Below, one piece after another: positions 25,527 to 53,860 of a stretch of DNA of 64,000 nucleotides. A program made the position numbers and the translations under genes. Under the pieces are notes generated by a model that ran no database searches, had not been told where the DNA came from, and worked only from the letters and a program-made list of their open reading frames with translations. Source of the stretch: a candidate division FCPU426 bacterium. GTDB lineage: Bacteria > Oederibacteriota > Muellerivitia > Muellerivitales > Muellerivitaceae. The stretch's first letter is position 1. Each line of letters starts with the position of its first letter. The stretch covers positions 224,001 through 288,000 of the forward strand of contig CAWCKJ010000006.1 of the NCBI GenBank assembly GCA_963796105.1. The letters are read 5' to 3'.

Positions 25527-25554
25527 TTGACACTCGGCTTTCACCCCATATAAT
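25527..25554 (+). promoter_or_regulatory. consensus sigma70 promoter upstream of glgA
   Basis: TTGACA-16 bp-TATAAT. Confidence 0.7.
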
Positions 25555-25866: not shown

Positions 25867-27381
25867 ATGGCTCGAAATAATACAACTCAAAATGGCTCTT
25901 CCGGTCAACCGGGGGCGGGACCGTTGAAAAGACGGATCCTGTTCGTTTCCTCCGAGGTGGTCCCATACGCGAAAACCGGGGGGCTCGCCGATGTGGTGGG
26001 GGCACTTCCCCTAGCCTTGGCGAAATTGGGCTGTGAGGTGGGAGTGGTGATGCCCCGCTACAAGGCGGTCACCCAGGAGAAATTCCATCTTCGAATGGAA
26101 GTGAAAGCAATGCCCGTTCCCATGGGAATGGGGGAAATGAGCGCGGACATCCTTTCAGCCCCGTTAGGAAACACGCCCAGCAAGATTTATTTCATTCAGA
26201 ATGACCGCTACTTTGACCGGGAGGGCCTGTACGGCTCTCCTGAGGGCGATTTCCAGGATAACGCCGAACGGTTCGCTTTCTTTTCCCGCGCGGTCTTGGA
26301 AATGCTCAAGTCCATCCATTGGTATCCCCACATCCTGCACTTAAACGATTGGCAGACAGGCCTCGCTGCCGCCTACTTGAAAACCCTATACGGAAACCTT
26401 CCTTATTTCGAGAGGATCCGGACCCTTTTCACCATCCACAATATGGCTTACCAGGGCTTGTTTCCAAAGTATGTGCTTCCCATGACGGGCTTGGGATGGG
26501 AGGAATTCACCCCTGAAAAGATCGAGTTTTACGGCCAGGTGAATTACCTGAAATCCGGCCTGGTTTATTCGGATGCCCTGAATACCGTCTCCGAGAAATA
26601 CGCCCAGGAGATCCAAGCCGACGAATACGGCCACGGCCTGCAGGGACTGCTCCAATCCCGCGCCGCGGACCTTTACGGGATCGTCAATGGGATCGACTAC
26701 CTGGAATGGAACCCCGCCACCGACAAGGAAATACCCTCGCAATATACGGCCAAGAATTCCAGCCTGAAAGCCGAGTCCAAGAAGAAACTCCTGAGGGAGC
26801 TGGACCTGGAATACAAAGCCGACACTCCCGTGATAGGCCTTGTCTCGCGCCTGACGGACCAGAAGGGAATGGATTTGATCGCGGACATCATCCATGAGTT
26901 CCTCTCCATGGACGTCCAATTCGTGCTGTTGGGGACCGGCGACCCGCGCTACCACGCCCTGTTCAAGGACCTTCAGGGCCGGTTCCCGAAAAACCTGGCC
27001 GCGGCCTTCCGCTTCGACAATCCCCTGGCCAAGCTCATTTACGCGGGAAGCGATATGTTTCTCATGCCATCGAGGTTCGAGCCCTGCGGATTGGGCCAGA
27101 TGATCGCCATGAAATTCGGAACCATCCCGATCGTGCGGAAGACCGGGGGGCTTTCCGACACCGTAGAGAACCTTTCCCCTGACGGCTCGAAGGGGACGGG
27201 TTTTGTTTTTGAGAATTACAAAAGCGGGGACCTGTTGGCTTCCATCAAGAGGGCAGTGGAGGCTTACCGCCAAAAACAGATTTGGCATCCCCTCATCCAG
27301 CGGGCCATGGGCCAGGACTTTTCCTGGACTGCCTCCGCTAGGAAATACGAAGAGCTTTATGAGACGATATTGAGAAAGTAA
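25867..27381 (+). CDS. glgA: glycogen synthase
   Basis: KTGGLADV, HLNDWQT, TIHN, NGID, PSRFEPCGLGQM, TGGL.DTV. Confidence 0.96.
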   Translation: MARNNTTQNGSSGQPGAGPLKRRILFVSSEVVPYAKTGGLADVVGALPLALAKLGCEVGVVMPRYKAVTQEKFHLRMEVKAMPVPMGMGEMSADILSAPLGNTPSKIYFIQNDRYFDREGLYGSPEGDFQDNAERFAFFSRAVLEMLKSIHWYPHILHLNDWQTGLAAAYLKTLYGNLPYFERIRTLFTIHNMAYQGLFPKYVLPMTGLGWEEFTPEKIEFYGQVNYLKSGLVYSDALNTVSEKYAQEIQADEYGHGLQGLLQSRAADLYGIVNGIDYLEWNPATDKEIPSQYTAKNSSLKAESKKKLLRELDLEYKADTPVIGLVSRLTDQKGMDLIADIIHEFLSMDVQFVLLGTGDPRYHALFKDLQGRFPKNLAAAFRFDNPLAKLIYAGSDMFLMPSRFEPCGLGQMIAMKFGTIPIVRKTGGLSDTVENLSPDGSKGTGFVFENYKSGDLLASIKRAVEAYRQKQIWHPLIQRAMGQDFSWTASARKYEELYETILRK

Positions 27382-27527
27382 TCCGCCGCCCTTCCAGTTC
27401 CCATTCCTTGAATCACCAAGGTTTTTTCCTTATTGTCCTTTTGGATGTTTTATGAAAGCTGTCGCGGGGCACACAAAGGCGGAAAATAAGGGAACTGAAT
27501 TTTTAATGAAAAACGGTTAAAGGAAAC

Positions 27528-28814
27528 ATGATTCACACTATTAAGGAATTTTTACAAAACAAAGATGACCTGCTGAGGGAGCAGTGGAACGCCTCGTCCA
27601 GGACCCTTTCGTCCCGGGTGGACCAGTTCAAACCCGACTCGCCCATTTTCCACAAGATCCGTAAGATATTGATGGACCTGGTCGACATCGTGGAAAAGAA
27701 GGGCAGCGCTGAACAGGCCGTGGACTCGGCGCTCAAACCCATCGTCTCCGAGCTCCGGAGCCTCCAGGCCGAAAATCAGTTAAATCCCACGGAAATGGTC
27801 TTTTTCCTGTTCCTCATGAGGGATATCCTCCGGGAAACCATCAAGCGGATGGGGGAGGCCTCCGCGAAAGAAGACCAGGCCAACGGGAACCAGGCCTATT
27901 CCGATGAGCTGGACCAGGTTTCCTCCCTCCTGAACCGCCTGGGCCTGGTTTTCTTCGAAAGCGCCATGCGCTTGAAGGAGGAGGATGGGTTCAACCAGGA
28001 TGTACTGGCCATCGAGTACGCCCTCCTTTACGAGAGGACCCGGCAGATCGCCATCACCGACCGCCTGACGGGCCTTTACAACTTCGGGTATTTCCTGGAG
28101 CGCTTGAAGGAGGAGAGGGTCCGCGCCGAGAGGTACCACCGGCTCCTATCCCTGATCATTTTCGATATCGACCATTTCAAGAAATACAACGACGCCAACG
28201 GCCACCCGGCAGGGAACGAGGTTTTAATAGAGATCGCCAAAATCCTCCAGGACGAGGCCCGTGAGGTGGATATCGTCGCGCGCTATGGGGGGGAGGAAAT
28301 GGTCCTGGTGCTCCCGGAAACCAGCCGCAAACGCGCCTTCGAGATGGCGGACCGGATCAGGGAAAAAATCGCGGGGACTGTCTTCCCCCATATGGAATCC
28401 CAGCCCAAAGGTCGTTTGACCGTTTCCGCAGGAGTGGCCACTTTTCCCGTGGACGCCGCCAACGAGGATGAGTTGGTCCAATCAGCCGACAGCAGCCTGT
28501 ACGAGGCCAAGTCGAAGGGGCGTAACTGCGTGGTGGCCTTTGAGCCGCCGCTCAAAGTCACCCTGATTTATAAGCCTCACCGCGAGGTTTCCAAGGTCGC
28601 CTTGGTCGGGGATTTCAACAACTGGGACAAGGATGTGGACTCGATGATCCGCCAGCCGGACGGCAGTTTCCAGTTCATCATTTCCTTGAACCGGGGAACC
28701 TACCATTACAAGTTCGTCTTGAACGACGTGGAATGGATTCCCGATCCGGCCTGTCCGGAAAGGGTTACGGATACCCTCGGGGGCGACAACAGCGTTCTTC
28801 GGGTTGGAAGTTGA
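27528..28814 (+). CDS. diguanylate cyclase: RsbRD_N-like helical domain + GGDEF + C-terminal CBM48/AMPK-beta-like glycogen-binding domain
   Basis: D.LTGLYN, DIDHFKKYND..GH..G, REVD I-site, RYGGEEM, LY.AK..GRN; C-terminal V.LVGDFNNW...G.Y.YKF...W.PDP...GG.NSVL. Confidence 0.9.
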   Translation: MIHTIKEFLQNKDDLLREQWNASSRTLSSRVDQFKPDSPIFHKIRKILMDLVDIVEKKGSAEQAVDSALKPIVSELRSLQAENQLNPTEMVFFLFLMRDILRETIKRMGEASAKEDQANGNQAYSDELDQVSSLLNRLGLVFFESAMRLKEEDGFNQDVLAIEYALLYERTRQIAITDRLTGLYNFGYFLERLKEERVRAERYHRLLSLIIFDIDHFKKYNDANGHPAGNEVLIEIAKILQDEAREVDIVARYGGEEMVLVLPETSRKRAFEMADRIREKIAGTVFPHMESQPKGRLTVSAGVATFPVDAANEDELVQSADSSLYEAKSKGRNCVVAFEPPLKVTLIYKPHREVSKVALVGDFNNWDKDVDSMIRQPDGSFQFIISLNRGTYHYKFVLNDVEWIPDPACPERVTDTLGGDNSVLRVGS

Positions 28815-28969: not shown

Positions 28970-31819
28970 ATGGCCGATTACAAAGCGACCCTCAACATCA
29001 CCCAAACCGCCTTCCCCATGAAGGCCAACCTGCCACAGACCGAGCCCCTAAGGCTGAAACTTTGGGAGGACCTGGGCTATCACCAGGGCATTCGGCGCAA
29101 ACCAGGCGCTCCCCAATACATCCTTCACGACGGCCCTCCCTTCGCCAACGGCGATATCCACATGGGCCACGCGCTCAACAAGGTTTTGAAGGACATCATC
29201 GTCAAGTACCGGACCCTGAGGGGGTTCGACAGCCCTTATATCCCCGGCTGGGACTGCCATGGGATGCCCATCGAGCATAAGGTGGTCGAGAAATTGGGCT
29301 CCAAGGCCAGTACCATGACGAAAGTCGAGATTCGGAAGGAATGCAGGAAGTACGCCGATAAATTCCTCGAGCGGCAGAAGGAGGAGTTCAAGCGCCTGGG
29401 GGTTTTCGGGGATTTCCTAAAACCCTATTCCACGATGGATCCCTCCTATGAGCTCTCCCTGGTCAAGGCCCTGACCCAAATGATCTCGGAAGGCTATGTC
29501 AGCAGGCGTTTGAGGCCCATCCATTGGTGTCCCGTTTGCAAATCCGCCCTGGCTGAAGCCGAGGTGGAATACGCGGATCACGAGTCCCTCTCCGTTACTG
29601 TGGCTTTCCCGGCAAAGCTTCTGCCGGAAGGCCTGTTCCCCAATACTCCACGGAAAAACCTCTTCTTCCTGATTTGGACCACGACCCCCTGGACTTTACC
29701 GGCGAACCTGGGCATTTCCGTCCATCCCGATTTCGAGTATGTGACCGTCCAGGTGGGGGAGAACCATTACATACTGGCCAAGGTCCTGCTGGCTCAGGTG
29801 GCAGGGGCCTGCGGGTGGAATATGCCTGAAATCAAGATTGTGGATGAGGCCCGGGGACGATCTTTGGATAAGGCCCTTGCGCGCCATCCCTTCCTCGAGA
29901 AGGACTCGCTCGTCATGGTGGGCCCCCATGTCACCGCCGACACGGGCACGGGGTTGGTCCATACGGCCCCGGGACACGGCCGGGAGGACTATGAGATTGG
30001 CCTTCAATACGGCCTGGAGGTTTATTCCCCCGTGAATGAGGCCGGAAGGTACGACTCCCGCTTCAAGGAATTCGAGGGGGTTTCGGTATGGGACGCCAAC
30101 CCGAAAATCGTTGAAAAACTCAAGGGGTTAGGGCTTTTGCTGTCAGTGGAAACCCTGAAACACAGCTATCCCCATTGCTGGCGGTCCAAGAATCCCATCA
30201 TATTCCGGGCCACGGCCCAATGGTTCATCGAGCTGGACCATAAGGACTTGAGGAAGAAGTGCCTGGAAGAAATCGAAAAGGTCCAGTGGATTCCAACCTG
30301 GGGCAAGGACAGGATTAGGAACATGGTGGAAGGCCGGGCCGATTGGTGTATTTCCCGGCAAAGATCCTGGGGTGTTCCCATCACGGCTTTCTATTGCAGG
30401 AATTGTCACAAAATCGTGGATGACCAAGAAATCCTGAAAAAAATAGTCCTCAAGGTTGAGAAAGAGGGGATCGAGGGCTGGTTTGCGGGGGGCAATTACG
30501 GCTGGTTGGACAACTTAAAATGCCCCAATTGTTCCTCGAGCGAATTCGTGAAGGAAGAGGATATTTTGGATGTCTGGTTCGAGTCGGGGAATTCCCATTT
30601 CGCCGTCCTGGACAATCGGGAAGAATTGAAAAATGGGAAACCAAGCGAAAAGCCCTTTGTCCTGTACCTGGAGGGAGGCGACCAGCACCGGGGATGGTTC
30701 CAAAGCGCCCTTTGGACCGGGGTAGCCTTAAAGGGCCGCGCCCCTTTCAGCGGGGTCTTGACCCACGGCTGGGTTTTGGATGCCGAGGGAAAAGCCATGC
30801 ACAAGAGCGCTGGGAACGTGATTGATCCCATGGATATGGTGAAGAAATACGGGGCCGACGTCCTGCGCCTTTGGGTCTCCTCGGAGGATTTTACGGAGGA
30901 TGTGGCCATCAGCGAGGAAATGCTCAATCGGATGTCCGAGGCCTACCGCCGCATCCGCAATACTTTCCGCTTTATCCTTGGGAACCTTTCGGACTTCAAT
31001 CCCTCTTCACACCGGGTGGTTGAAAAGGATTTTCTTCCTCTCGACCGCTGGGCCTGGATGGAAGCCCAAAGGACCCTTTCGGCCATGACCACGGCCTACG
31101 AGCAATACCAGTTCACGAAGGTTTTCCACCAGGCTGACCATTTCTTTTCCGTGGGCTTGAGCGCTGGTTATTTCGACATATTAAAAGACCGCCTCTACAC
31201 ATTCGAGGCGGATTCCAAGGCCCGCAGGGCCTCCCAAACGGTTCTTTATGACATCCTCATGGGTTTTGTCGTGGCCCTCGCCCCCATCCTTTCCTTCACC
31301 GCGGAGGAAATCTGGCAGTCCCTCCAAGAATCCTTCAAGAAGAAAGGCGAGAAAAGTGTCTTCCTGGCCCAGTGGCCTGAGTTGGAAACCCCGAAGGACG
31401 AGGCGTTCCTCCAGGAATGGGAGGATATTTTTTCCGTCAAGAGGGCTGTCTCGAAATCCCTCGAGACCCTGAGGCAGAATAAAACTATCGGAAGCTCTTT
31501 GGAGGCTGAGGTCGATTTATACGTTGAAAACGAGAAGGTGCTGCAGGTCCTTCAAAAACACATGGAAAACCTCCGTTATTACTTCCTAGTTTCCAGGGTA
31601 GGACTCCAATCCGGGAAGGGTCCCGCTGATAGCGTGGAGGCAGAGGAGGCCCGGCTGAAGACCCGTATTTGGCCCAAAAAATCCCCGGGGCAAAAATGCG
31701 CCAGGTGCTGGAATTACTATCCCGCGGAGCAGATGGATAAGGCCCATCCCGATATCTGCCACCGCTGCGGCCCGATCGTGAAGAAACTGGGCGGAACCGG
31801 CGAGGGAACGGCCTCGTGA
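28970..31819 (+). CDS. ileS: isoleucine--tRNA ligase (IleS1 type)
   Basis: HDGPPFANGDIHMGH, WTTTPWT, WCISRQR, AMHKS, C-terminal KCARCW...CHRC zinc finger. Confidence 0.97.
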   Translation: MADYKATLNITQTAFPMKANLPQTEPLRLKLWEDLGYHQGIRRKPGAPQYILHDGPPFANGDIHMGHALNKVLKDIIVKYRTLRGFDSPYIPGWDCHGMPIEHKVVEKLGSKASTMTKVEIRKECRKYADKFLERQKEEFKRLGVFGDFLKPYSTMDPSYELSLVKALTQMISEGYVSRRLRPIHWCPVCKSALAEAEVEYADHESLSVTVAFPAKLLPEGLFPNTPRKNLFFLIWTTTPWTLPANLGISVHPDFEYVTVQVGENHYILAKVLLAQVAGACGWNMPEIKIVDEARGRSLDKALARHPFLEKDSLVMVGPHVTADTGTGLVHTAPGHGREDYEIGLQYGLEVYSPVNEAGRYDSRFKEFEGVSVWDANPKIVEKLKGLGLLLSVETLKHSYPHCWRSKNPIIFRATAQWFIELDHKDLRKKCLEEIEKVQWIPTWGKDRIRNMVEGRADWCISRQRSWGVPITAFYCRNCHKIVDDQEILKKIVLKVEKEGIEGWFAGGNYGWLDNLKCPNCSSSEFVKEEDILDVWFESGNSHFAVLDNREELKNGKPSEKPFVLYLEGGDQHRGWFQSALWTGVALKGRAPFSGVLTHGWVLDAEGKAMHKSAGNVIDPMDMVKKYGADVLRLWVSSEDFTEDVAISEEMLNRMSEAYRRIRNTFRFILGNLSDFNPSSHRVVEKDFLPLDRWAWMEAQRTLSAMTTAYEQYQFTKVFHQADHFFSVGLSAGYFDILKDRLYTFEADSKARRASQTVLYDILMGFVVALAPILSFTAEEIWQSLQESFKKKGEKSVFLAQWPELETPKDEAFLQEWEDIFSVKRAVSKSLETLRQNKTIGSSLEAEVDLYVENEKVLQVLQKHMENLRYYFLVSRVGLQSGKGPADSVEAEEARLKTRIWPKKSPGQKCARCWNYYPAEQMDKAHPDICHRCGPIVKKLGGTGEGTAS

Positions 31820-32292
31820 TCCTCCTGGGTATCGCCATGTTCGTGATGGCCCTGGACCAGACCACCAAATTCCTGATTATCCGCTCTATCCACCTCAATG
31901 ACTCCACCACAATCCTTCCGAACTATATTTATCTCACCTATATCCAGAATCCGGGAACGGCCTTTGGCTTTATGTCCAACATGGAGCTCTTCGTGCGGAT
32001 CCCTTTTTTCGTGATGGTGACCGGCCTTGCTGCCTTTATTGTCCACATCTACCAGCGGTTCCTGCCTCCGGAACGGCACCTCTCCCGGATTGCCTTGGGA
32101 TTGGTCCTGGGAGGAGCCTTTGGGAATTTCATCGACCGCCTTCTCCATGGGAAGGTCATCGACTTCATCGACCTGCGGTTTCACGGATTCCAGTGGTATA
32201 TCTTCAACGTGGCTGATTCCTGCATAACGGTGGGCCTCCTCTTCCTTTTTATCGAGTATTTACTCCCGAAAAGAGATAAAAAAGCCCTATGA
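31816..32292 (+). CDS. lspA: lipoprotein signal peptidase II, copy 1
   Basis: LDQ.TK, NPGTAFG, GGAFGNFIDR, VIDFI, FNVAD. Confidence 0.94.
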   Translation: MILLGIAMFVMALDQTTKFLIIRSIHLNDSTTILPNYIYLTYIQNPGTAFGFMSNMELFVRIPFFVMVTGLAAFIVHIYQRFLPPERHLSRIALGLVLGGAFGNFIDRLLHGKVIDFIDLRFHGFQWYIFNVADSCITVGLLFLFIEYLLPKRDKKAL

Positions 32293-32771
32293 GAATCCTC
32301 AATGTCTCCCTTTGGGCCCTGCTCTTGGACCAGATCTCAAAATTCTCCATCATCCATTACCTGCGCCCGGAACAATCGGCAACCTTGATCCCCAATTTCT
32401 TCTATTTCACCTATGTGCAGAACCCAGGGGCGGCCTTTGGTTTCATGGCCGACATGAACGCGATGGTCCGGATCCCCTTTTTCATCGCCATCACCTTCGG
32501 CGCCGGCTTGATCATCTATTCCTACCAGCGTTTAATACCGCCCGAGAAGGTTTACACCCGTTTCGCCCTGGGACTGATTTGGGGCGGGGCCTTGGGGAAC
32601 TTCGTGGACCGGGTTTTCCACAGGAAGGTGGTGGACTTCATCGATGTGCGCTATTACCATCACCAGTGGTACGTGTTCAACCTGGCGGATTCCTATATCA
32701 CGGTCGGGTTGTCGATCCTGGTCCTGATTTTCTGGCTGGGTAAAAATGAAAGCCCCCTCGAGAGGTTTTAA
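32289..32771 (+). CDS. lspA: lipoprotein signal peptidase II, copy 2
   Basis: LDQ.SK, NPGAAFG, GGALGNFVDR, VVDFI, FNLAD. Confidence 0.94.
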   Translation: MRILNVSLWALLLDQISKFSIIHYLRPEQSATLIPNFFYFTYVQNPGAAFGFMADMNAMVRIPFFIAITFGAGLIIYSYQRLIPPEKVYTRFALGLIWGGALGNFVDRVFHRKVVDFIDVRYYHHQWYVFNLADSYITVGLSILVLIFWLGKNESPLERF

Positions 32772-43549: not shown

Positions 43550-44818
43550 ATGAACCTGCGAATGCCTGCCGCTTTCAATTTAAGCGATGTTATCGAAGGC
43601 GAATTCGTAGAGCCTCATTTCCAACCCATCGTTTCCATCGGTAAAAAATCCATCCTCGGTTACGAGGGTTTGACCCGTGGAATCCATCCCATTCACCTAC
43701 AGAGTATTTATCCCTGCGATTTGTTCACGGAAGCCAAGATCCAGGGGCTCACCTTCTCCCTTGACCAGCTTTGCCGCCAAAAGGTATTGGAACAGTTCAA
43801 GGTGATATTGGAAAAACAGCCGGATTGTTTCCTGTCCTTGAATTTCGAGGCGTCGGTCATTGACCAGAAGAAAACCGAACCCGTGAACCTGATCCAGCAA
43901 GTCCTTTCCCTGGGCCTGAAACCCGAATGTATCGCCATGGAAGTCATCGAGTCCCAAGTGGAGGATCTGGCGAAACTCCAGGATTTCATCCAGACTTATC
44001 GAGGATACGGTTTCCTGATCGCCTTGGATGACGTCGGGGCAGGGCACTCCAACCTCAATCGGATACCCCTTTTAAAACCCGATATCCTCAAGATTGACCG
44101 TTTCCTGGTGGATGGTATTTCAAAGGATTTTTACAAACTGGAGGTATTTAAATCCCTGGTGGGTTTGGCCCGCCAGATCGGGGCCTTGATCGTGGCGGAG
44201 GGGATTGAAGAGGAGGAGGACGCTTTAACGATAATGGAATTGGGTGTGGACATGCTTCAAGGCTATTACATCACCCCGCCCCAGAGATTTAATGAGTTGA
44301 ATAGCCAAGTCTCGGAAGAACCCATCCAACACCTATCCCAAAGATTCAGGGAAATGGTCCTGGAAAAACTCGACATTAAGCGTTTTAACCTCCGTAAATA
44401 CGAACTCATGACCAGGGATATCCAAATAGAAATTGTCAAAGTCCAGGTAGGTGATTTTGATAGGAAACTTTCCGAGATCATCCATTATTTTCCCTTGGTG
44501 GAATGTGTTTATGTCTTGGATGAGCAAGGCGCGCAGGTCACGGAAACAATCTTCGGTGAAAACGAGGGCATCTCCAGGAACCGAACTATGTTCAGGCCCC
44601 GGAAGGCTGGTTCGGACCATTCCCTGCGGGATTATTACTATATGCTGGTGGAAGGTGGTTTGAAGAAAACCACTTACGTCAGCGAGGCATACTTGTCCCA
44701 ATCCACAGGAAACCTTTGCGTGACCTTCTCCCGGATATTCACCGATTTAAACGGCGCCAACCGCATCTTATGCGCCGATATCAATACCCAATACCTGAAG
44801 CAAATTCCTACTTTTTAA
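43550..44818 (+). CDS. EAL-domain c-di-GMP phosphodiesterase-like protein with YkuI_C-like C-terminal sensory domain
   Basis: FQPIV, YEGL.R, LN, E..E, IALDDVGAG.S, LKID, AEGIE, QGY; C-terminal DHS.R.YY...SE.Y.S..TG..C.T. Confidence 0.9.
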   Translation: MNLRMPAAFNLSDVIEGEFVEPHFQPIVSIGKKSILGYEGLTRGIHPIHLQSIYPCDLFTEAKIQGLTFSLDQLCRQKVLEQFKVILEKQPDCFLSLNFEASVIDQKKTEPVNLIQQVLSLGLKPECIAMEVIESQVEDLAKLQDFIQTYRGYGFLIALDDVGAGHSNLNRIPLLKPDILKIDRFLVDGISKDFYKLEVFKSLVGLARQIGALIVAEGIEEEEDALTIMELGVDMLQGYYITPPQRFNELNSQVSEEPIQHLSQRFREMVLEKLDIKRFNLRKYELMTRDIQIEIVKVQVGDFDRKLSEIIHYFPLVECVYVLDEQGAQVTETIFGENEGISRNRTMFRPRKAGSDHSLRDYYYMLVEGGLKKTTYVSEAYLSQSTGNLCVTFSRIFTDLNGANRILCADINTQYLKQIPTF

Positions 44819-47123: not shown

Positions 47124-50100
47124 AGGCCGGGTATCCTACCATAAATTAATTTCGGCTCAAGACGATTGGATTATGGGGTTGGGAACCCTTGGCGGAAGAG
47201 TTGGTAGGACAGCCTGGACAAGGATCGGCATCTGGCGAGGTTATTAACAGGACCCTGCCGCTTTAGGGCTTATCTAAGAATCAGGAGCTTTAGGATATAC
47301 CTTTTCCCATTGATGGTGACCAAAACGTGGTAAAGACCGTTCGCCAAGGGAGCGCCTGATTTGCTGATGAGGTAAACAGGCAAGCCGGTATTTGCCCCGG
47401 CGGGAATTTGTGTGAAAAGTTGATTACTGATCAATCGAAAGGCTGTCGAATAAATTTTTATATCAACCGTATTTATCGGATTGGTAAAGAGGAACTGTAG
47501 AGTGATGGGTCCGGAACCTCTTACGAGACTTGGGAAGAGGTTGGGGCGGTTTGTGGGTGGTGGATTCCCGCCAGGAATGGTATTGGTGGGCGTGATAGTC
47601 CATGTGGGAGTCAGGGTCGGTGTCTGAGTCGGCGTGGGAGTGGATTGAACCGGTGTGTAGGTATAGGTGTATGTAGGGGTAAAGGTAACAGTGGGTGATG
47701 CCAGTGTGTTGGTCGGTGTCGGGGTGGAAGTGGGTGTGATCGTGACACAAGGCCGGTTCACGGTCACTGGAAGGTTTGAGGTGACGGCTCCGCCAGGATA
47801 ACCCACGCTCGCGGTATTAGTGGTAGTCACACAGGCGTTCCCAGCCCAGTAATAATCCTCCATGCTCGCCATAAGGGTCACGCAGGTATTCCCCGGGAAT
47901 GTTCCCCAGGTCGCGGGACTTCCGCCACTGGCTGCTGGTTCCGGCCAATTGGCATTTGCGTTGTAATCGATTAATGTAGTGGAAACTGCTGGAACGACCC
48001 AACCAAGAAAGCTAAAGGGAGTACCGCCGCCTTGGGTGTCAGTCAGTGTCACTCCTCCGGTTGAAACGGGTCCACCTGTATTGCAGATCGCCACCGCGTA
48101 AGTCACGAACATGTCCCCTCCGCTTATATTTGTCCCCGCGAGGCTCTTGGTGATGGTCATGGTGACCGGTCCAACCGTCGGCTGTGGCGCCGGGATCGTG
48201 GCGGCCAAGGTTTCGAAAAACGCGCCGTTGCAATTGCTGGTGCTGTAATCCCCGTCAGTTGTGGACGCGGTAAATGGAACCTGCTGGCCCGTCACAGGGT
48301 TGAAAATGCTTTGCCCCCAACAGCAATATCCGGTGGCGGTATTGACGACTGCTGGTGTCTGCCAGGTGCCGCCCGTGCCTGTGTAATTGGTCGCGTACCA
48401 ATTGCTGGCTGGAGGTGTGGAAGGATTTCCGGAGCTGACATAATCCATTGAAACGCCGTTGCTTGAACTGGTAATTTCTGAATGCTGGCCATTGGAACAG
48501 GTGATATCTAGATCCCAGGAAGTGTACATGGTGTTACAGGCCGTATTTTGGGTATAAACCGCGACATAGACCTGGCTTCCGGTTAATAGGGATGTTGGCA
48601 CTGTAATGCAACCAGGGGGGCAGTTACCGGTGCCATTCCAGTTGCAATAAGCGACTTGTCCCAAGTAAACACCACCGACATAAACTTGGGACCAGTCGTC
48701 ACTGGCCACGCAGATCTTGGCGGAGGAGGGAATGCATGGTGACCCTGATATCGGGGTATATGTAAATGTGGGTGTTTGGAGTGAAGTTGTGGGAGTTGAG
48801 GATAAAGTGATGGTCGGAGAAATGGTATTCGTTGGAGTGCTGGTAGGGGAAGGTGTGTTGGTTCGGGTGTAGGTGGCGACTCCTGTCGGCCAGGGGGTTG
48901 GTGTGTTTGTATAAGTATAGGTATAAGTCGGGGTATAAGTATTAGTAGGGCAGTTCATCACATAGGTGATAGCATTCGAAGTGGAAGCAGGGCTGAGAAG
49001 AGAAAAAGTGTTTACCCGACTTAGACAGTCATACATGGCGTTATTCGTATTGTCATCACCGATGATGGTCGTGGACCAACAATAGGGTGTCCAGCCGGTT
49101 CCGTTATAGGTGGCGCCAGGAAAACCTTGGGAAGCAAGCATGGTCACACTTTGGTCCCAATCGTAATAAAAGCCGTTGGAATCTGGATTGCCGGTGAATC
49201 CTTTGTTTGTGACGCCTAATACGGAGCTTCTGAACCCCTCGCTCCAGAAGAAGGTCGTGCCGTTAGTAATCCCAGAATCAACAAAAGTGACTGGGTTCGT
49301 GACCCATCTTCCGGAGTTGCAAACTTGCACCCCGATACTGACGATCCTATCCGCTGGACTTTCGTTTTGCTGGTAGCCCGGAAAAGTCACGGAGTTAGCA
49401 TTTCCCGTCCCGTTGCTTGACCAGCCTACGAAACTTTTAGTTAGGGAAATGTTTGTTGCGGGCGGGACAGGAATAGGAGGCGGAATTGTGGATGCTTGGG
49501 AGAAGAATAGTGCCCCATTGCAATTACTGGTACTGTAAGCGCCGGTGCTATCAGTGGACAAAAATGGCACACGACCGCCGGTTGTGGGGTTGTAGAGGGA
49601 TTGGCTCAAACAGCAATCGCCTGAGGCTTCACTGACTACAACAGGACTGATCCAACCGGTTGTGTTGTAATTAGTGGCGTACCAATTACTGGCTGGGGGT
49701 GTGGATGGATTTCCGTTATTCACATAATCCATATTAATGCCGCCGGTCGCGCTGGAAATGTCAGAATGTTCCCCGTTAGAGCAGGTAATATCCAGATCCC
49801 AAGAAGCGTAGAGGGTGTTACAGGAGGTGTTTTGGGTATAAACGGCGACATATACCTGGTTTCCACTTAAAAGGGAAGTGGGGACCGTGATGCATCCCGG
49901 AGGGCATGATCCGGTGCCGTTCCAGTTGCAATAATTGATTTGGCCAAGGTAAACACCGCCCACATAAACTTGTGACCAGTCATCGCTGGCCACGCAGATC
50001 TGGGCGGAGGAAGGTGTGCAAGGGGAAATGGAAGTGGATGTTGGCGAAGGGGTTGAAGTGAAAGTGGCGACACTTGTTGGCCATGGGGTGGGGCTGTTCG

Positions 50101-52216
50101 TGATAGTAGGAGTGAAGGTGAGGGGTGGGGTGTATGTGCTGGTAAAGGTGTATGTTGGTGTATAGGTAACTGTGGGTGAGAAACATGGAATTGGAACCGA
50201 GACTGAATTGGAATTAACGCTTCCAGAATTGCTTCCGCTAATCCAGGTCAAGCTGGCGTTATTGACGAGGGTTTGGCATTGGTTACCAGGCAAGTAGAAG
50301 TTTTCAGTGTCCGCCAGCAGGGTCACGCAATTGCCGCCTCCGCCGAAGGAAGACCAATAGATTGAATTCGCGTTTACATCCGGTTGTCCGCCTCCATAGT
50401 AGTAACAACTTCCGGTGGCGGTGGTTGGCCCAAAACCCCAGCATGAGAAATTAAACCCGGCGCTGACCGGGAAATTGTCCGTAATCGTCACGCCGCCTGG
50501 TTGTGTCACGGCTCCGCCATTATTGCAAACTTTGATTCCGAAAGTGGCGAACATATCCATGCCGCTGGTAACAGCCGAGCCTGATACAAGGGAATTGGTA
50601 ATGGTGAAAGAAGGAGGCCCTGCTATCGGAGAAAGTGACTGAATAGTAGCTTCCTGTCGGAAGAAAAGAGCCCCGTTGCAGTTGCTGGTGCTATAGGCCC
50701 CGTTGCTATCCGCTGAAATGAATGGAGCTTGAGAGCCGGTAACAGGATTGAAAATTTGCTGTCCCCAACAACAATAGCCCGATGTCGTGCTGACCGAGAC
50801 TGGAAGGGACGTGAAATCCGTACCGCTATAGTTGGTGGCGTACCAGTTGCTGGCGGGAGGGGTTGTGGGGTTTCCGGAACTGACGTAATCCATACCAATG
50901 CCGCCGCTTCCGCTGGTGATTTCCGAGTGTTGGCCGTTGGAGCAAGTGATATCCAAGTCCCAGGATGTATAAACATTATTACAGGCGGTGTTTTGGGTAT
51001 AGACCGCGACATAAACTTGGCTTCCGGCTAAAAGGGATGTGGGAACGGTGATGCACCCTGGAGGGCAAGATCCGCTTCCATCAAAGTTGCAATAAGCGAC
51101 TTGGCCTAAGTAAACGCCTCCAACATAGACTTGGGAAAAGTCGTCGCTAGCCACGCAAATCTGTGCTGAGGTGGGAACGCAGGGAGATCCTGCGGTGCTT
51201 GAGGGCGTGGGTGAGTAGGTTTGAGTCCAAGTTGATGTAAAGGCTGGGCTTGGGGTTGCCGTGGGCGAAGGTGTGTTCGTCGGGGTATTGCACTGTTGAG
51301 TGATTGAGATGGAATTTGTGGTGATCGGGTTGCTTCCAACGATTTCCCCATAATCAGTGAATACTGAACAAGCCGCAGGCGGGTTCATGAATTGGTAATG
51401 CAATTCAAAGGTGGCGCATTGGCTTGGAGGTAACGCTGAATAAACGATGGTGGAAGGCGCATTGCTCCCATTAAGTCCCATATAGGACAATCCAGCGCTT
51501 GTTGTATGCGGATTGTTATCGAGGATATTGCATCCGCTGGTGTCGCCGCAAAAACCGTTAAATTGGGGATTCCCAGCGGGATAATTAGTAACGTCGGTGA
51601 CGGTCACCGATTGGGCTGTGACAGAACCTGTATTGCATACCCCAATCTGCACGGTGACGGCTGTCCCCCCCGCGATATTTGCCGGAATAGTGTTGATTAT
51701 ATTTTTTGACAAAGTGAGATTGCTCAATGGGTTTGTGGGCGAGGGCGTAGGGGATAAGGTCATGGTCCAAGTGGGTGTTTGTGAGGGGCTGGGAGTCGGT
51801 GAGGGGGTTGGCGTGTTAGATGGACTTGGATTGGGTGTCGGGGATAGGGTAATGGTTGGAGTGTTCGTGGGGGTTGGTGTGATGGTGGGAGTGTAAGTGG
51901 CGACACCTGTCGGCCAAGGTGTTGGGGTGTAGGTATTCGTAAAGGTGAATGTAAACGTAAAAGTATATGTCGGGGTAAAAGTAAAGGTGTTGGTGGCGCA
52001 GTTCATGACATAGGTGATGGCATTTGAGGTGTAAGCTGGACTTAAAGATGAAAAAGTGTTTGTCCTTGTAAGACAGTCATATATGGCGTTATTCGTATTG
52101 TCCCCGCCGGTGATGGTGGCTGACCAGCAATAGGGAACCCAGGCGGTTCCGTTATAGGTAGCGCCGGGAAAACCCTGTGAACCGAGCATTGTCACGGCTT
52201 GACCCCAATCGTAATA

Positions 52217-53860
52217 CCTGAATTTTGCGCCTAATAAAAAAACCATCTAGGAAACCATTATAGGATAAGGGTTGCGAAGCCAACTCATCCTAAAAGAGGG
52301 TCCCCCAGATGGTGAAACGTCAAGATACGCCTCAGAAATCAAACCCGCAAGTCCAGAAAAAAGCCAATCGAAACGGGAGAATCGCGCCCAAGATTACGGC
52401 CAATACTCCCGTAGGTATTTGCGAAGACCGCCTAACAGCTTTTGGCGGATTGTTGGCATTGGCGAAGATGTTCGACCTTCTTGATTTTGAGCGGGAATTC
52501 AAAAAACACTATGCCGCACCTAAACGCCTTCCGAATTTGGGCCACTACCGGATGGTAAGCGGCATCCTAATGCTTCTTTTCATCGGGTTCCAAAGACTTG
52601 GCCATTTTGCCTACCTGCGGGGTGAGGTCATGCTGTGCGGTTTACTGCGGGTTCCCTTGTTGCCGGTAGTGACAACTTTTTGGAGATACCTGAGGTCGCT
52701 GGGGATCGGGCAGTCGGCATCGTTGCTGAATCTGAGTGGGGCGTTACGGGCCAAGGTTTGGGGACAGGTGAAATATGCCCCCAAGAAGGTGGAGATCAAC
52801 ATCGATACCACCACCGCAACGGTCTACGGAAATATCGAGGGAAGCCGAAAAGGATACAACCCCAAGCACCGGGGCAAGAAGGGACTGAGGCCCATTCTGT
52901 GTTTTCTCCAGGAAACCCGGGAATATTTGTGCGGAACCCAAAGACGCGGAACCACCCTTAGTTCTGAGGAAGTGGCCCGCCAAATTAGACAATTCCGGCG
53001 ACTCTTGCCGTCCTGTGTCCGGACGATTCTGGTGCGCGGTGACGGTGAAATGATCGGCTGGGAAAGCGTGAAAGCCTGTGAAAAAGAAGGGTTTTCTTTC
53101 ATCTTCGGGAACAAGCGGCATGACCCGCCTTTCACGAAAAAGGGTTGGTACCGCCATGGAGAACACGAATACAACGAATGTGTCCATCAACCCATAGGCT
53201 GGCAACAACCAGTCCGGTTTGTGGCGATGAGGACGCTGGATGAAAAAGCGCGGGAGAAACAATTGAGCCTTCCTGAAATGGAAGGATATGTCTACCGAAT
53301 CTTCGCGACCAACTGTCTGGGAGCACCCCATCGGGTGGTTGAGGAATACGACCTGCGCGCGGATGTGGAAAACCTGATTGGTGAGGCGCAACGGGAGGGG
53401 TTATTAGCAATTCCCTCTAAGAGTTTCCAAAGCCACCATGCTTTTTTCCAGATCGTGATGCTGGCTTACAACCTCTGGAGGTGGATGAAACTAATGGTGG
53501 GCCATTGTGGAAAAGAAAAGCGACCGGGAAAGAAGCCACAGGAGAAGGAACAGATCACCATGCCGGACCATACCCTTCGGATCGCACGTTTGAAGATGCT
53601 CTTTGTAGCCGCCCGAATCCAGTATCACGGCCATCGGGATGTGGTGAGGTATTCAATCCATGATGATAGGACAGCGGGCCTATTGGGTTTCCTCAAATAC
53701 CTTGATCGAAAACGATTGGAAAGACCCAGGGCGGCCTAGAAGTGGCTTGGTGCAAAAAATTCTTTGCACATAAGTTCACTTCTGATGAAAATGGCCACTG
53801 TCGGGTCCCGATTCAGGCCGATCTGGCCACGGAATCGGTAAACTCGGTGCAAAATTCAGG
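52217..53860 (+). mobile_element. IS1380-family insertion sequence, 1644 bp
   Basis: TIR CCTGAATTTTGCGCC (52217-31) / GGTGCAAAATTCAGG (53846-60), 14/15 match; 5-bp TSD TAATA at 52212-16 and 53861-65. Confidence 0.93.
52309..53739 (+). CDS. IS1380-family transposase
   Basis: LTAFGGL, IDTT...YG..EG...GYN, VRGD, Y..RA.VEN.I.E, LAYNL, RLK. Confidence 0.9.
   Translation: MVKRQDTPQKSNPQVQKKANRNGRIAPKITANTPVGICEDRLTAFGGLLALAKMFDLLDFEREFKKHYAAPKRLPNLGHYRMVSGILMLLFIGFQRLGHFAYLRGEVMLCGLLRVPLLPVVTTFWRYLRSLGIGQSASLLNLSGALRAKVWGQVKYAPKKVEINIDTTTATVYGNIEGSRKGYNPKHRGKKGLRPILCFLQETREYLCGTQRRGTTLSSEEVARQIRQFRRLLPSCVRTILVRGDGEMIGWESVKACEKEGFSFIFGNKRHDPPFTKKGWYRHGEHEYNECVHQPIGWQQPVRFVAMRTLDEKAREKQLSLPEMEGYVYRIFATNCLGAPHRVVEEYDLRADVENLIGEAQREGLLAIPSKSFQSHHAFFQIVMLAYNLWRWMKLMVGHCGKEKRPGKKPQEKEQITMPDHTLRIARLKMLFVAARIQYHGHRDVVRYSIHDDRTAGLLGFLKYLDRKRLERPRAA

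Follow-up and report, generated by a model that had tools for sequence, protein, structure and literature searches.

In AMPK and SNF1, a carbohydrate-binding module (CBM) of the CBM48 type in the beta subunit is part of a signalling enzyme (1z0n, 2f15, 6b2e), and mutating W100, K126, W133, L146 or T148 lowers the glycogen binding of AMPK (PMC2642990). Cyclic dinucleotide signalling has been tied to glycogen in Streptomyces venezuelae, where GlgX is activated by cyclic di-GMP (c-di-GMP) and the signal runs from messenger to glycogen enzyme (PMC9530166). The GGDEF fold is shared by canonical diguanylate cyclases such as PleD (1w25), WspR (3bre/3i5c), DgcR (6zxm) and SiaD (7e6g) and by the Hypr synthases of cyclic GMP-AMP (cGAMP), among them GacA (6d9m) and Bd0367 (PMC6456294, PMC9140294). 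Here we describe a 428-residue protein in which a GGDEF domain is joined to a CBM48-type module and whose gene lies directly behind the glycogen synthase gene glgA in a 64,000-nucleotide stretch from a candidate division FCPU426 bacterium (the window; positions 224,001 to 288,000 of the forward strand of contig CAWCKJ010000006.1, assembly GCA_963796105.1). Our preferred reading, which we hold tentatively and at somewhat less than even confidence, is that this protein would be a soluble, glycogen-docked cyclase with relaxed guanine selectivity, whose products would include cGAMP as well as c-di-GMP and whose rate the glycogen store would likely tune.

An initial annotation of the window had placed a 428-residue open reading frame 146 bp behind glgA on the same strand and had divided its product into RsbRD_N-like, GGDEF and CBM48/AMPK-type domains, and our searches bear out both statements. 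On the plus strand, glgA (25867..27381) encodes a 504-residue glycogen synthase of the ADP-glucose-type family with a KTGGL motif, which scored 583.7 bits against TIGR02095 (cut-off 328) in a profile search, and the cyclase gene (27528..28814) follows on the same strand after a gap of 146 nt. A Pfam scan of the 428-residue protein (P0001) with curated cut-offs found RsbRD_N at residues 5–105 (33.9 bits, cut-off 24.3), GGDEF at residues 175–333 (152.3 bits, cut-off 23.8) and AMPK1_CBM at residues 353–426 (39.7 bits, cut-off 26.8), with the CBM_48 profile at 16.3 bits staying below its cut-off of 22.4. The AlphaFold model (mean predicted local distance difference test score of 87.8) consists of a helical N-terminal domain, a helix at residues 157–176, the GGDEF domain and a beta-sandwich. 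The protein is without a transmembrane stretch and is predicted to be soluble; its highest 19-residue hydrophobicity mean is 0.94, and a value above 1.8 occurs in 2 of 120 homologues. At least 120 homologues at 49–100% identity were among the matches listed, and since nearly all of them have both Pfam domains, the fusion is not a product of chance. Residue conservation is given below for 66 homologues picked from the 120 listed, unless another sample is named.

The CBM48-type module occupies residues 340–428 (28545..28811, plus strand), and the AMPK-beta signature that had been read in it is present in all its parts, with GDFNNW at 361–366, YHYKF at 392–396, WIPDP at 403–407 and NSV at 421–423. 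Taken alone, the C-terminal 89 residues find PDB chains of the AMPK beta CBM with E ~2e-6, and residues 340–428 of the model match the CBM48-type modules of 4aef (Z 12.9), 2qlv (Z 12.2) and 6b2e (Z 11.8; root-mean-square deviation [rmsd] 1.6 over 81 residues), forming an AMPK-like beta-sandwich with rmsd values of 1.6–2.1 over 81–85 residues for the three structures. The structural neighbours comprise AMPK, SNF1, a plant glucan phosphatase and amylase CBM48s. When aligned to rat AMPK beta1 (1z0n), W366, K395, W403, L417, G418 and N421 correspond to W100, K126, W133, L146, G147 and N150, which matches four of the five AMPK glycogen contacts; the fifth, T148, is replaced by Gly419. Among the homologues W366, K395, W403, G418, G419 and N421 are found in 66/66, and Leu or Met stands at position 417 in 54/66. 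The CBM is thus likely of the AMPK glycogen-binding type and, judged by these residues, would dock the protein on glycogen. Unlike AMPK beta, with which it shares the fusion of this module to a signalling enzyme, the cyclase is a bacterial single chain, its output would come from a nucleotide cyclase rather than a kinase, and it has Gly at the T148 position. Each carrier genome of the family has exactly one AMPK1_CBM match. In other loci, two small anti-sigma-like proteins (L301:5087-5590 and L310:2735-3388) read from their sequence as having one membrane helix and a C-terminal AMPK1_CBM.

The GGDEF domain (residues 175–337; 28050..28538, plus strand), which was located by Pfam and by PDB sequence and fold matches, is the best-conserved part of the protein. 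Its active-site motif is GGEEM (residues 254–258; 28287..28301, plus strand), of which GGEE is invariant in the homologues and the fifth residue is Met in 33, Leu in 28 and Phe in 5. D213, N221, D222, H226, R252, G254, G255, E256 and E257 occur in 66/66 homologues and K218 in 65/66, and the I-site noted in the initial annotation, REVD at residues 245–248 (28260..28271, plus strand), is likewise conserved as an RxxD (Arg in 62/66, Asp in 66/66). With the catalytic residues invariant, a changed enzyme fits better than a decayed one. The annotation's description of an intact-looking catalytic site stands for GGEEM and the catalytic residues; what it overlooked is the Met or Leu in the fifth motif position and two residues of the nucleotide pocket, Asn230 and Phe186.

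We placed these two residues by alignment to GacA (6d9m), the best PDB sequence match of the domain (E 3e-35), which aligns without gaps around the pocket. Asn230 (28215..28217, plus strand) falls at the position that reads the Watson-Crick edge of the base, where GacA has Ser348 and WspR and PleD have Asp (Asp344 in PleD), and Phe186 (28083..28085, plus strand) falls at the position that stacks on the base across the dimer, where GacA has Tyr304 and canonical cyclases have Arg. Both are conserved, Asn230 in 66/66 homologues and position 186 as Phe in 64 and Tyr in 2. In the larger set of distinct GGDEF domains that we parsed by regular expression, the base reader is Asn in 107/107 homologue domains and the cross-dimer residue is Phe in 105 and Tyr in 2. 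Metagenome fusions also carry Asn as the base reader, in 18/18 of type A, to which our protein belongs, and in 38/39 others. The base reader is Asp in 162/167 CBM-less representatives, in 75/84 generic loci and, in this genome, in 12 of the 13 domains that could be parsed out of 22 GGDEF matches. In planctomycete proteins that share one small N-terminal domain, Asn occurs in 4/4 CBM fusions and Asp in 12/12 CBM-less domains. CBM-less enzymes with Asn amount to 6/84 and 5/167, in samples that are biased towards our query, and 0/11 of them have the cross-dimer Arg. They are L006, L012, L013, L014, L070 and L080 together with P0247, P0250, P0255, P0298 and P0306, whose cross-dimer residue is Tyr, Phe, His or Gln, and by their sequences a wider class of Asn GGDEF enzymes may exist. 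Loci L037, L050 and L052 (Aminicenantes and Acidobacteriota records) combine Ser, Gln and GGDE, a Hypr-like signature.

These positions are known to set specificity. The S348D mutation makes GacA a pure diguanylate cyclase and Y304R shifts it towards c-di-GMP (PMC6456294), and the S214D mutant of Bd0367 indicates that the base-reading position likewise controls cGAMP output in that enzyme (PMC9140294). The initial annotation had called the protein a diguanylate cyclase; the GGDEF cyclase domain is there, and the label is unproven as to product, since both Hypr specificity positions are changed. Our protein has the fold, the metal-binding Asp/Glu, the general-base Glu, the Lys, the Asn-Asp pair and the His of canonical cyclases, and it shares with PleD, WspR, DgcR and SiaD (fold match Z 24–27) the RxxD I-site and a helical stalk before the domain. 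It differs from them in having Asn for the Asp344 equivalent, Phe for Arg and Met or Leu as the fifth residue, which departs from the [G/A/S]G[D/E]E[F/Y] motif, and none of those structures has a carbohydrate-binding module. With Hypr enzymes it shares two non-canonical specificity positions and the non-Arg, often aromatic, cross-dimer residue. Unlike them, it has Asn rather than Ser/Thr and GGEE[M/L] rather than GGDE[F/Y], a motif rule that was itself derived for Ser/Thr enzymes, and it carries a CBM48 and a helical N-terminal domain instead of a receiver. In its presumed working it would resemble both an AMPK-style signalling enzyme that binds glycogen and a Hypr cyclase; we file the protein under neither the canonical nor the Hypr class, since by its sequence it lacks defining residues of both.

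Using a profile of the N-terminal domain, we found the protein in 29/31 genomes of the window's family and in 0/68 other genomes of the phylum. When 1.84 billion representatives were searched with a profile, the GGDEF-CBM tail also turned up with different input domains in front of it, namely EAL plus a second domain, GAF-GAF, a receiver and a small helical domain. Fusions with the small helical N-terminal domain (type B), which carry a GGDEF or GGEEF motif, occur in 8 further genomes of the phylum and in 4/251 genomes sampled around a planctomycete. A strict junction pattern, whose counts are not prevalences, picked out a canonical-pocket GGDEF-CBM form in 3/251 genomes sampled around an Elusimicrobia genome and nothing in 351 genomes from the phylum around a Polyangia genome. 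Scanning genome contigs with the full alignment brought up mostly generic GGDEFs, and we use those 80 loci as background only. The ESM Atlas holds an automatic GGDEF + AMPK1_CBM cluster of 81 members. The architecture is thus in databases yet apparently unstudied, and its components are known but their combination is undescribed, as far as the literature searched reaches: among the papers listed, none deals with a GGDEF-AMPK1_CBM/CBM48 fusion, in line with the annotation's remark that no characterised example was known.

In a carefully built tree of the GGDEF domain, for which 54 rows were selected, type A forms a clade at 94/96 and type B at 100/99, and all 23 Asn-CBM rows lie on one side of a branch at 78/77, so that their common origin is neither shown nor rejected. 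A CBM tree of 50 rows, which has few columns, joins types A and B (91/83) and puts every cyclase-fused CBM in one group (80/59). A single origin of the Asn-CBM pair is the simplest reading.

In 27 of the 29 carrier genomes glgA lies directly upstream of the cyclase gene on the same strand, at gaps of 19–257 nt (median 61); in the remaining two the contig begins 8 and 2 bases before the match. A metagenome scan gave 99 loci, not dereplicated, of which 63 have enough upstream DNA, and glgA stands upstream in 15/15 close members as against 0/4 distant type A members, 0/39 of type B and 0/5 others. Elsewhere in the phylum, 28 glgA loci in 27 genomes gave no GGDEF gene within 1.5 kb of glgA, and carriers of the other fusion types have glgA elsewhere in the genome in 8 of the 9 tested. 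The whole block ftsY-STAS-5′-nucleotidase-glgA-[cyclase gene]-ileS-lspA is conserved, with ileS (28970..31819, plus strand) downstream of the cyclase in 23/29 carrier genomes. A genome of the sister family (G025) has the block without the cyclase, and there ileS comes directly after glgA. The cyclase was thus either gained behind glgA once in the family or lost in G025. The upstream STAS and 5′-nucleotidase-like genes, which G025 keeps, are thereby ruled out as dedicated partners. In two loci (L092 and L122, from G011 and G072) motifs in the catalytic region of GlgA are altered (EPSG for EPCG; other residues after KTGGL), and the cyclase gene is kept.

The promoter-like sites around these genes are consensus matches only. 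One with the full sigma70 consensus (TTGACA-16-TATAAT, 12/12) lies 5′ of glgA (25527..25554, plus strand), and a weak one (TTGAAT-17-TATTGT, 8/12), whose hexamers recur in a genome of the same genus, lies in the glgA-cyclase gap (27408..27436, plus strand). Such sites (≥8/12) are found in 9/27 glgA-cyclase gaps compared with 3.6 ± 1.7 in shuffles, although related gaps are not independent. Since they are commoner in the gap than in shuffles, co-transcription of glgA and the cyclase gene is not to be assumed from this sequence. We did not accept a hairpin at 27406-27421 as a terminator; terminator-like sites number 9, against 6.5 in shuffles.

The N-terminal domain (residues 5–149; 27540..27974, plus strand) is all-helical and probably an input domain. 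RsbRD_N scored above its cut-off in 3/8 full-length family members scanned, and the fold match to the stressosome chain 3zta is weak (Z 8.4, rmsd 4.3 over 109 aligned residues) and tied with unrelated helical bundles; a Foldseek search of the domain gave no match at E≤0.001. As in non-heme globin sensor domains of the RsbR type, a family defined in PMC8717448, the domain is without a heme-ligating His, and no column of residues 1–175 has His or Cys conserved in more than 26/66 homologues. It is likely a non-heme-globin-like input domain; unlike RsbR-type sensors, the chain has no STAS domain. RsbRD_N-GGDEF clusters are present in the ESM Atlas. The helix at residues 157–176 (IEYALLYERTRQIA; 27996..28055, plus strand) enters the GGDEF domain, mean column conservation over residues 151–176 is 73%, and it is a probable dimer stalk.

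Among the glycogen genes of this genome are glgA, glgB and glgP, a glgX-like gene that scores 505.7 bits where the cut-off is 640.9, and three good matches to GH57, and glgA itself is found in 27/30 sampled genomes outside the family as well as within it. A search for canonical glgC was negative in all 99 genomes of the phylum and positive in 8/14 controls. GlgC is the usual control point of glycogen synthesis. The best match of the glgC search is an 849-residue nucleotidyltransferase-phosphomutase fusion (G000:C4:1506090-1508640, L130:6090-8636); GalT, which sits in galE-galT-galK, was ruled out as the source of ADP-glucose. The annotation had drawn an analogy with Streptomyces GlgX, and this is not borne out here, since the genome's GlgX has no RxxD in residues 21–127 of its N-terminal domain and is closest to TreX, which is without the c-di-GMP-binding residues (PMC9530166). 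As for readers, 29 PilZ matches are found in the genome, small and several in tandem, and 23 have the c-di-GMP motifs RxxxR and D/NxSxxG. There is one DAC-family cyclase. A search for RF01051 (GEMM-I type) riboswitches was silent in 31/31 genomes, and the control set was equally silent. A GAF-GGDEF cyclase gene (L129:10213-11319, G000:C3) lies about 750 nt after glgB, just 3′ of a GH57-glgB pair, and is a second cyclase adjoining a glycogen gene.

In the cyclase that we propose, an alpha-1,4-glucan would lie between W366 and W403, much as one does in the CBM of AMPK, and the granule would change the activity or the location of the enzyme. Since GGDEF catalysis needs a dimer, two chains would associate by way of helix 157–176 and the helical N-terminal domain, and a crowded granule surface would raise or lower how often two half-sites meet. 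The amide of Asn230 could serve as hydrogen-bond donor or acceptor, Phe186 would be without the cation-pi preference for guanine, and we propose that ATP would be admitted as a result. c-di-GMP at the RxxD site would feed back, and the N-terminal domain would add a second input, which would be swappable given that EAL, GAF, REC or a small helical domain occurs in its place. A bolder version, which we regard as doubtful, is that the Asn reader and the aromatic cross-dimer residue would define a third GGDEF specificity class wired to a glycogen-binding module, turning the size or branching of the store into cGAMP or cyclic di-AMP. By analogy with Asp-to-Asn mutants of GTPases, the product may even be a xanthine-containing dinucleotide.

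Several observations weigh against relaxed selectivity in a glycogen-docked enzyme. In the Hypr enzymes characterised so far, Ser or Thr goes together with GGDE[F/Y], and in the literature searched we found no data on an enzyme with an Asn pocket. The change of Asp to Ser inactivated 4/5 canonical enzymes (PMC6456294), and together with the Met or Leu fifth residue this makes low activity possible. The same CBM is also found fused to GGDEF domains with a canonical Arg/Asp pocket, in Elusimicrobiota and in the REC and GAF types. The Asn-pocket fusions are one clade in the best tree (78/77), and the association of CBM with Asn may be one event; with a probable single origin, their co-occurrence is not independent evidence. 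In the genome, readers of c-di-GMP are plentiful and no reader of cGAMP was identified. The route to glycogen in the phylum is unclear without a canonical glgC. Conservation of the glgA adjacency, which the initial annotation had proposed as a check, holds within the family and not across relatives, since no glycogen gene was found near the other fusions at 48 metagenome or 14 genome loci. With the block conserved as a whole and G025 having it without the cyclase, we count the linkage as one event, suggestive rather than repeated evidence.

What the pocket leaves open as an alternative is a glycogen-docked enzyme that makes c-di-GMP only, with Asn230 still reading guanine, perhaps more weakly, in which case the enzyme would respond to the level of GTP besides glycogen. 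Asn matches Asp in size, so that the distance rule for GGEE still holds, the RxxD site is conserved, readers with c-di-GMP motifs are many (23/29 PilZ matches), canonical-pocket CBM fusions exist, and one Asp-to-Ser mutant remained a pure diguanylate cyclase (PMC6456294). We nevertheless consider this unlikely, if not strongly so, given that both specificity positions are changed together and kept in 107/107 homologues, and that the cross-dimer Arg, present in 94% of predicted diguanylate cyclases, favours guanine (PMC6456294). The same non-canonical base reader and fifth residue, beside a conserved I-site and a position behind glgA in a phylum without canonical GlgC, would also suit a weak or inactive cyclase that serves on the granule as a dinucleotide receptor or adaptor, binding c-di-GMP at RxxD and either bringing in glycogen enzymes, GlgA for instance, or holding them back. 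This we judge improbable: the metal-binding and general-base residues are all invariant across about 50% sequence divergence, whereas degenerate receptor GGDEFs are not known to keep such residues, and distant type A members keep the N-terminal domain yet adjoin glgA in 0/4.

The link to glycogen itself could be read otherwise, with the CBM binding another glucan or merely tethering the protein without regulating it, and with the glgA adjacency an accident of general synteny. Conservation extends over the entire block from ftsY to lspA, with ileS following in 23/29, the glgA-cyclase gap often has a promoter-like site, the neighbours of type B fusions are instead HAD phosphatases, sugar transferases and a gene with a glycoamylase domain, and the same CBM family appears, by sequence reading, on the probable membrane anti-sigma proteins L301 and L310. 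Since the cyclase has no membrane stretch, its ligand should be cytoplasmic, and glycogen is the main cytoplasmic alpha-glucan; moreover, for the genome's only such CBM gene to lie beside one of about 7 glycogen genes has, by our estimate, a rough prior of <1%. We therefore give this explanation, too, a low probability.

The neighbourhoods of other fusions, and the rest of the window, hold further features. Type B fusions L303, L304, L306 and L307 of the phylum are directly followed by a Cof-type HAD phosphatase gene, and L149, L170, L180, L189 and L202 are flanked on one side by a bacterial sugar transferase gene or one for DUF1003 and on the other by a very large glycoamylase-domain gene, a neighbourhood that hints at another glucan. 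The distant type A members L140, L156, L166 and L178 have an EAL-domain gene on their upstream side. In the window, an EAL protein (43550-44815) is 41% identical over 409 residues to the N-terminal half of P0166, a natural EAL-GGDEF-CBM fusion, and is by this similarity a possible cognate phosphodiesterase. Two tandem signal peptidase II (lspA) genes lie 5′ of lgt (31816-32771), as in other family members. The segment 34577-40000 has the look of a mobile or conflict island; it holds a TOTE-type primase-helicase gene on the minus strand, two double-HTH genes and one AAA_14/DUF4143 gene. A 1658-residue open reading frame without a Pfam match (47273-52246) adjoins a DDE transposase (52309-53736), of which contig C12 has a same-scoring copy.

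The link between second messengers and glycogen in bacteria is little known, and the example described in PMC9530166 runs from messenger to glycogen enzyme. For the reverse direction, from glycogen to messenger, the family described here offers a candidate that is soluble and consists of a single chain. The GGDEF proteins known to make cGAMP account for about 0.17% of the GGDEF family (PMC9140294), and cGAMP made by a natural Asn/aromatic pocket would widen cGAMP signalling well beyond the Ser/Thr enzymes. If a third specificity class exists, the system would amount to a bacterial counterpart of glycogen sensing by AMPK, with a messenger channel of its own; it would be spread over this phylum, planctomycetes and unnamed lineages, and would operate here in a phylum without the GlgC control point.

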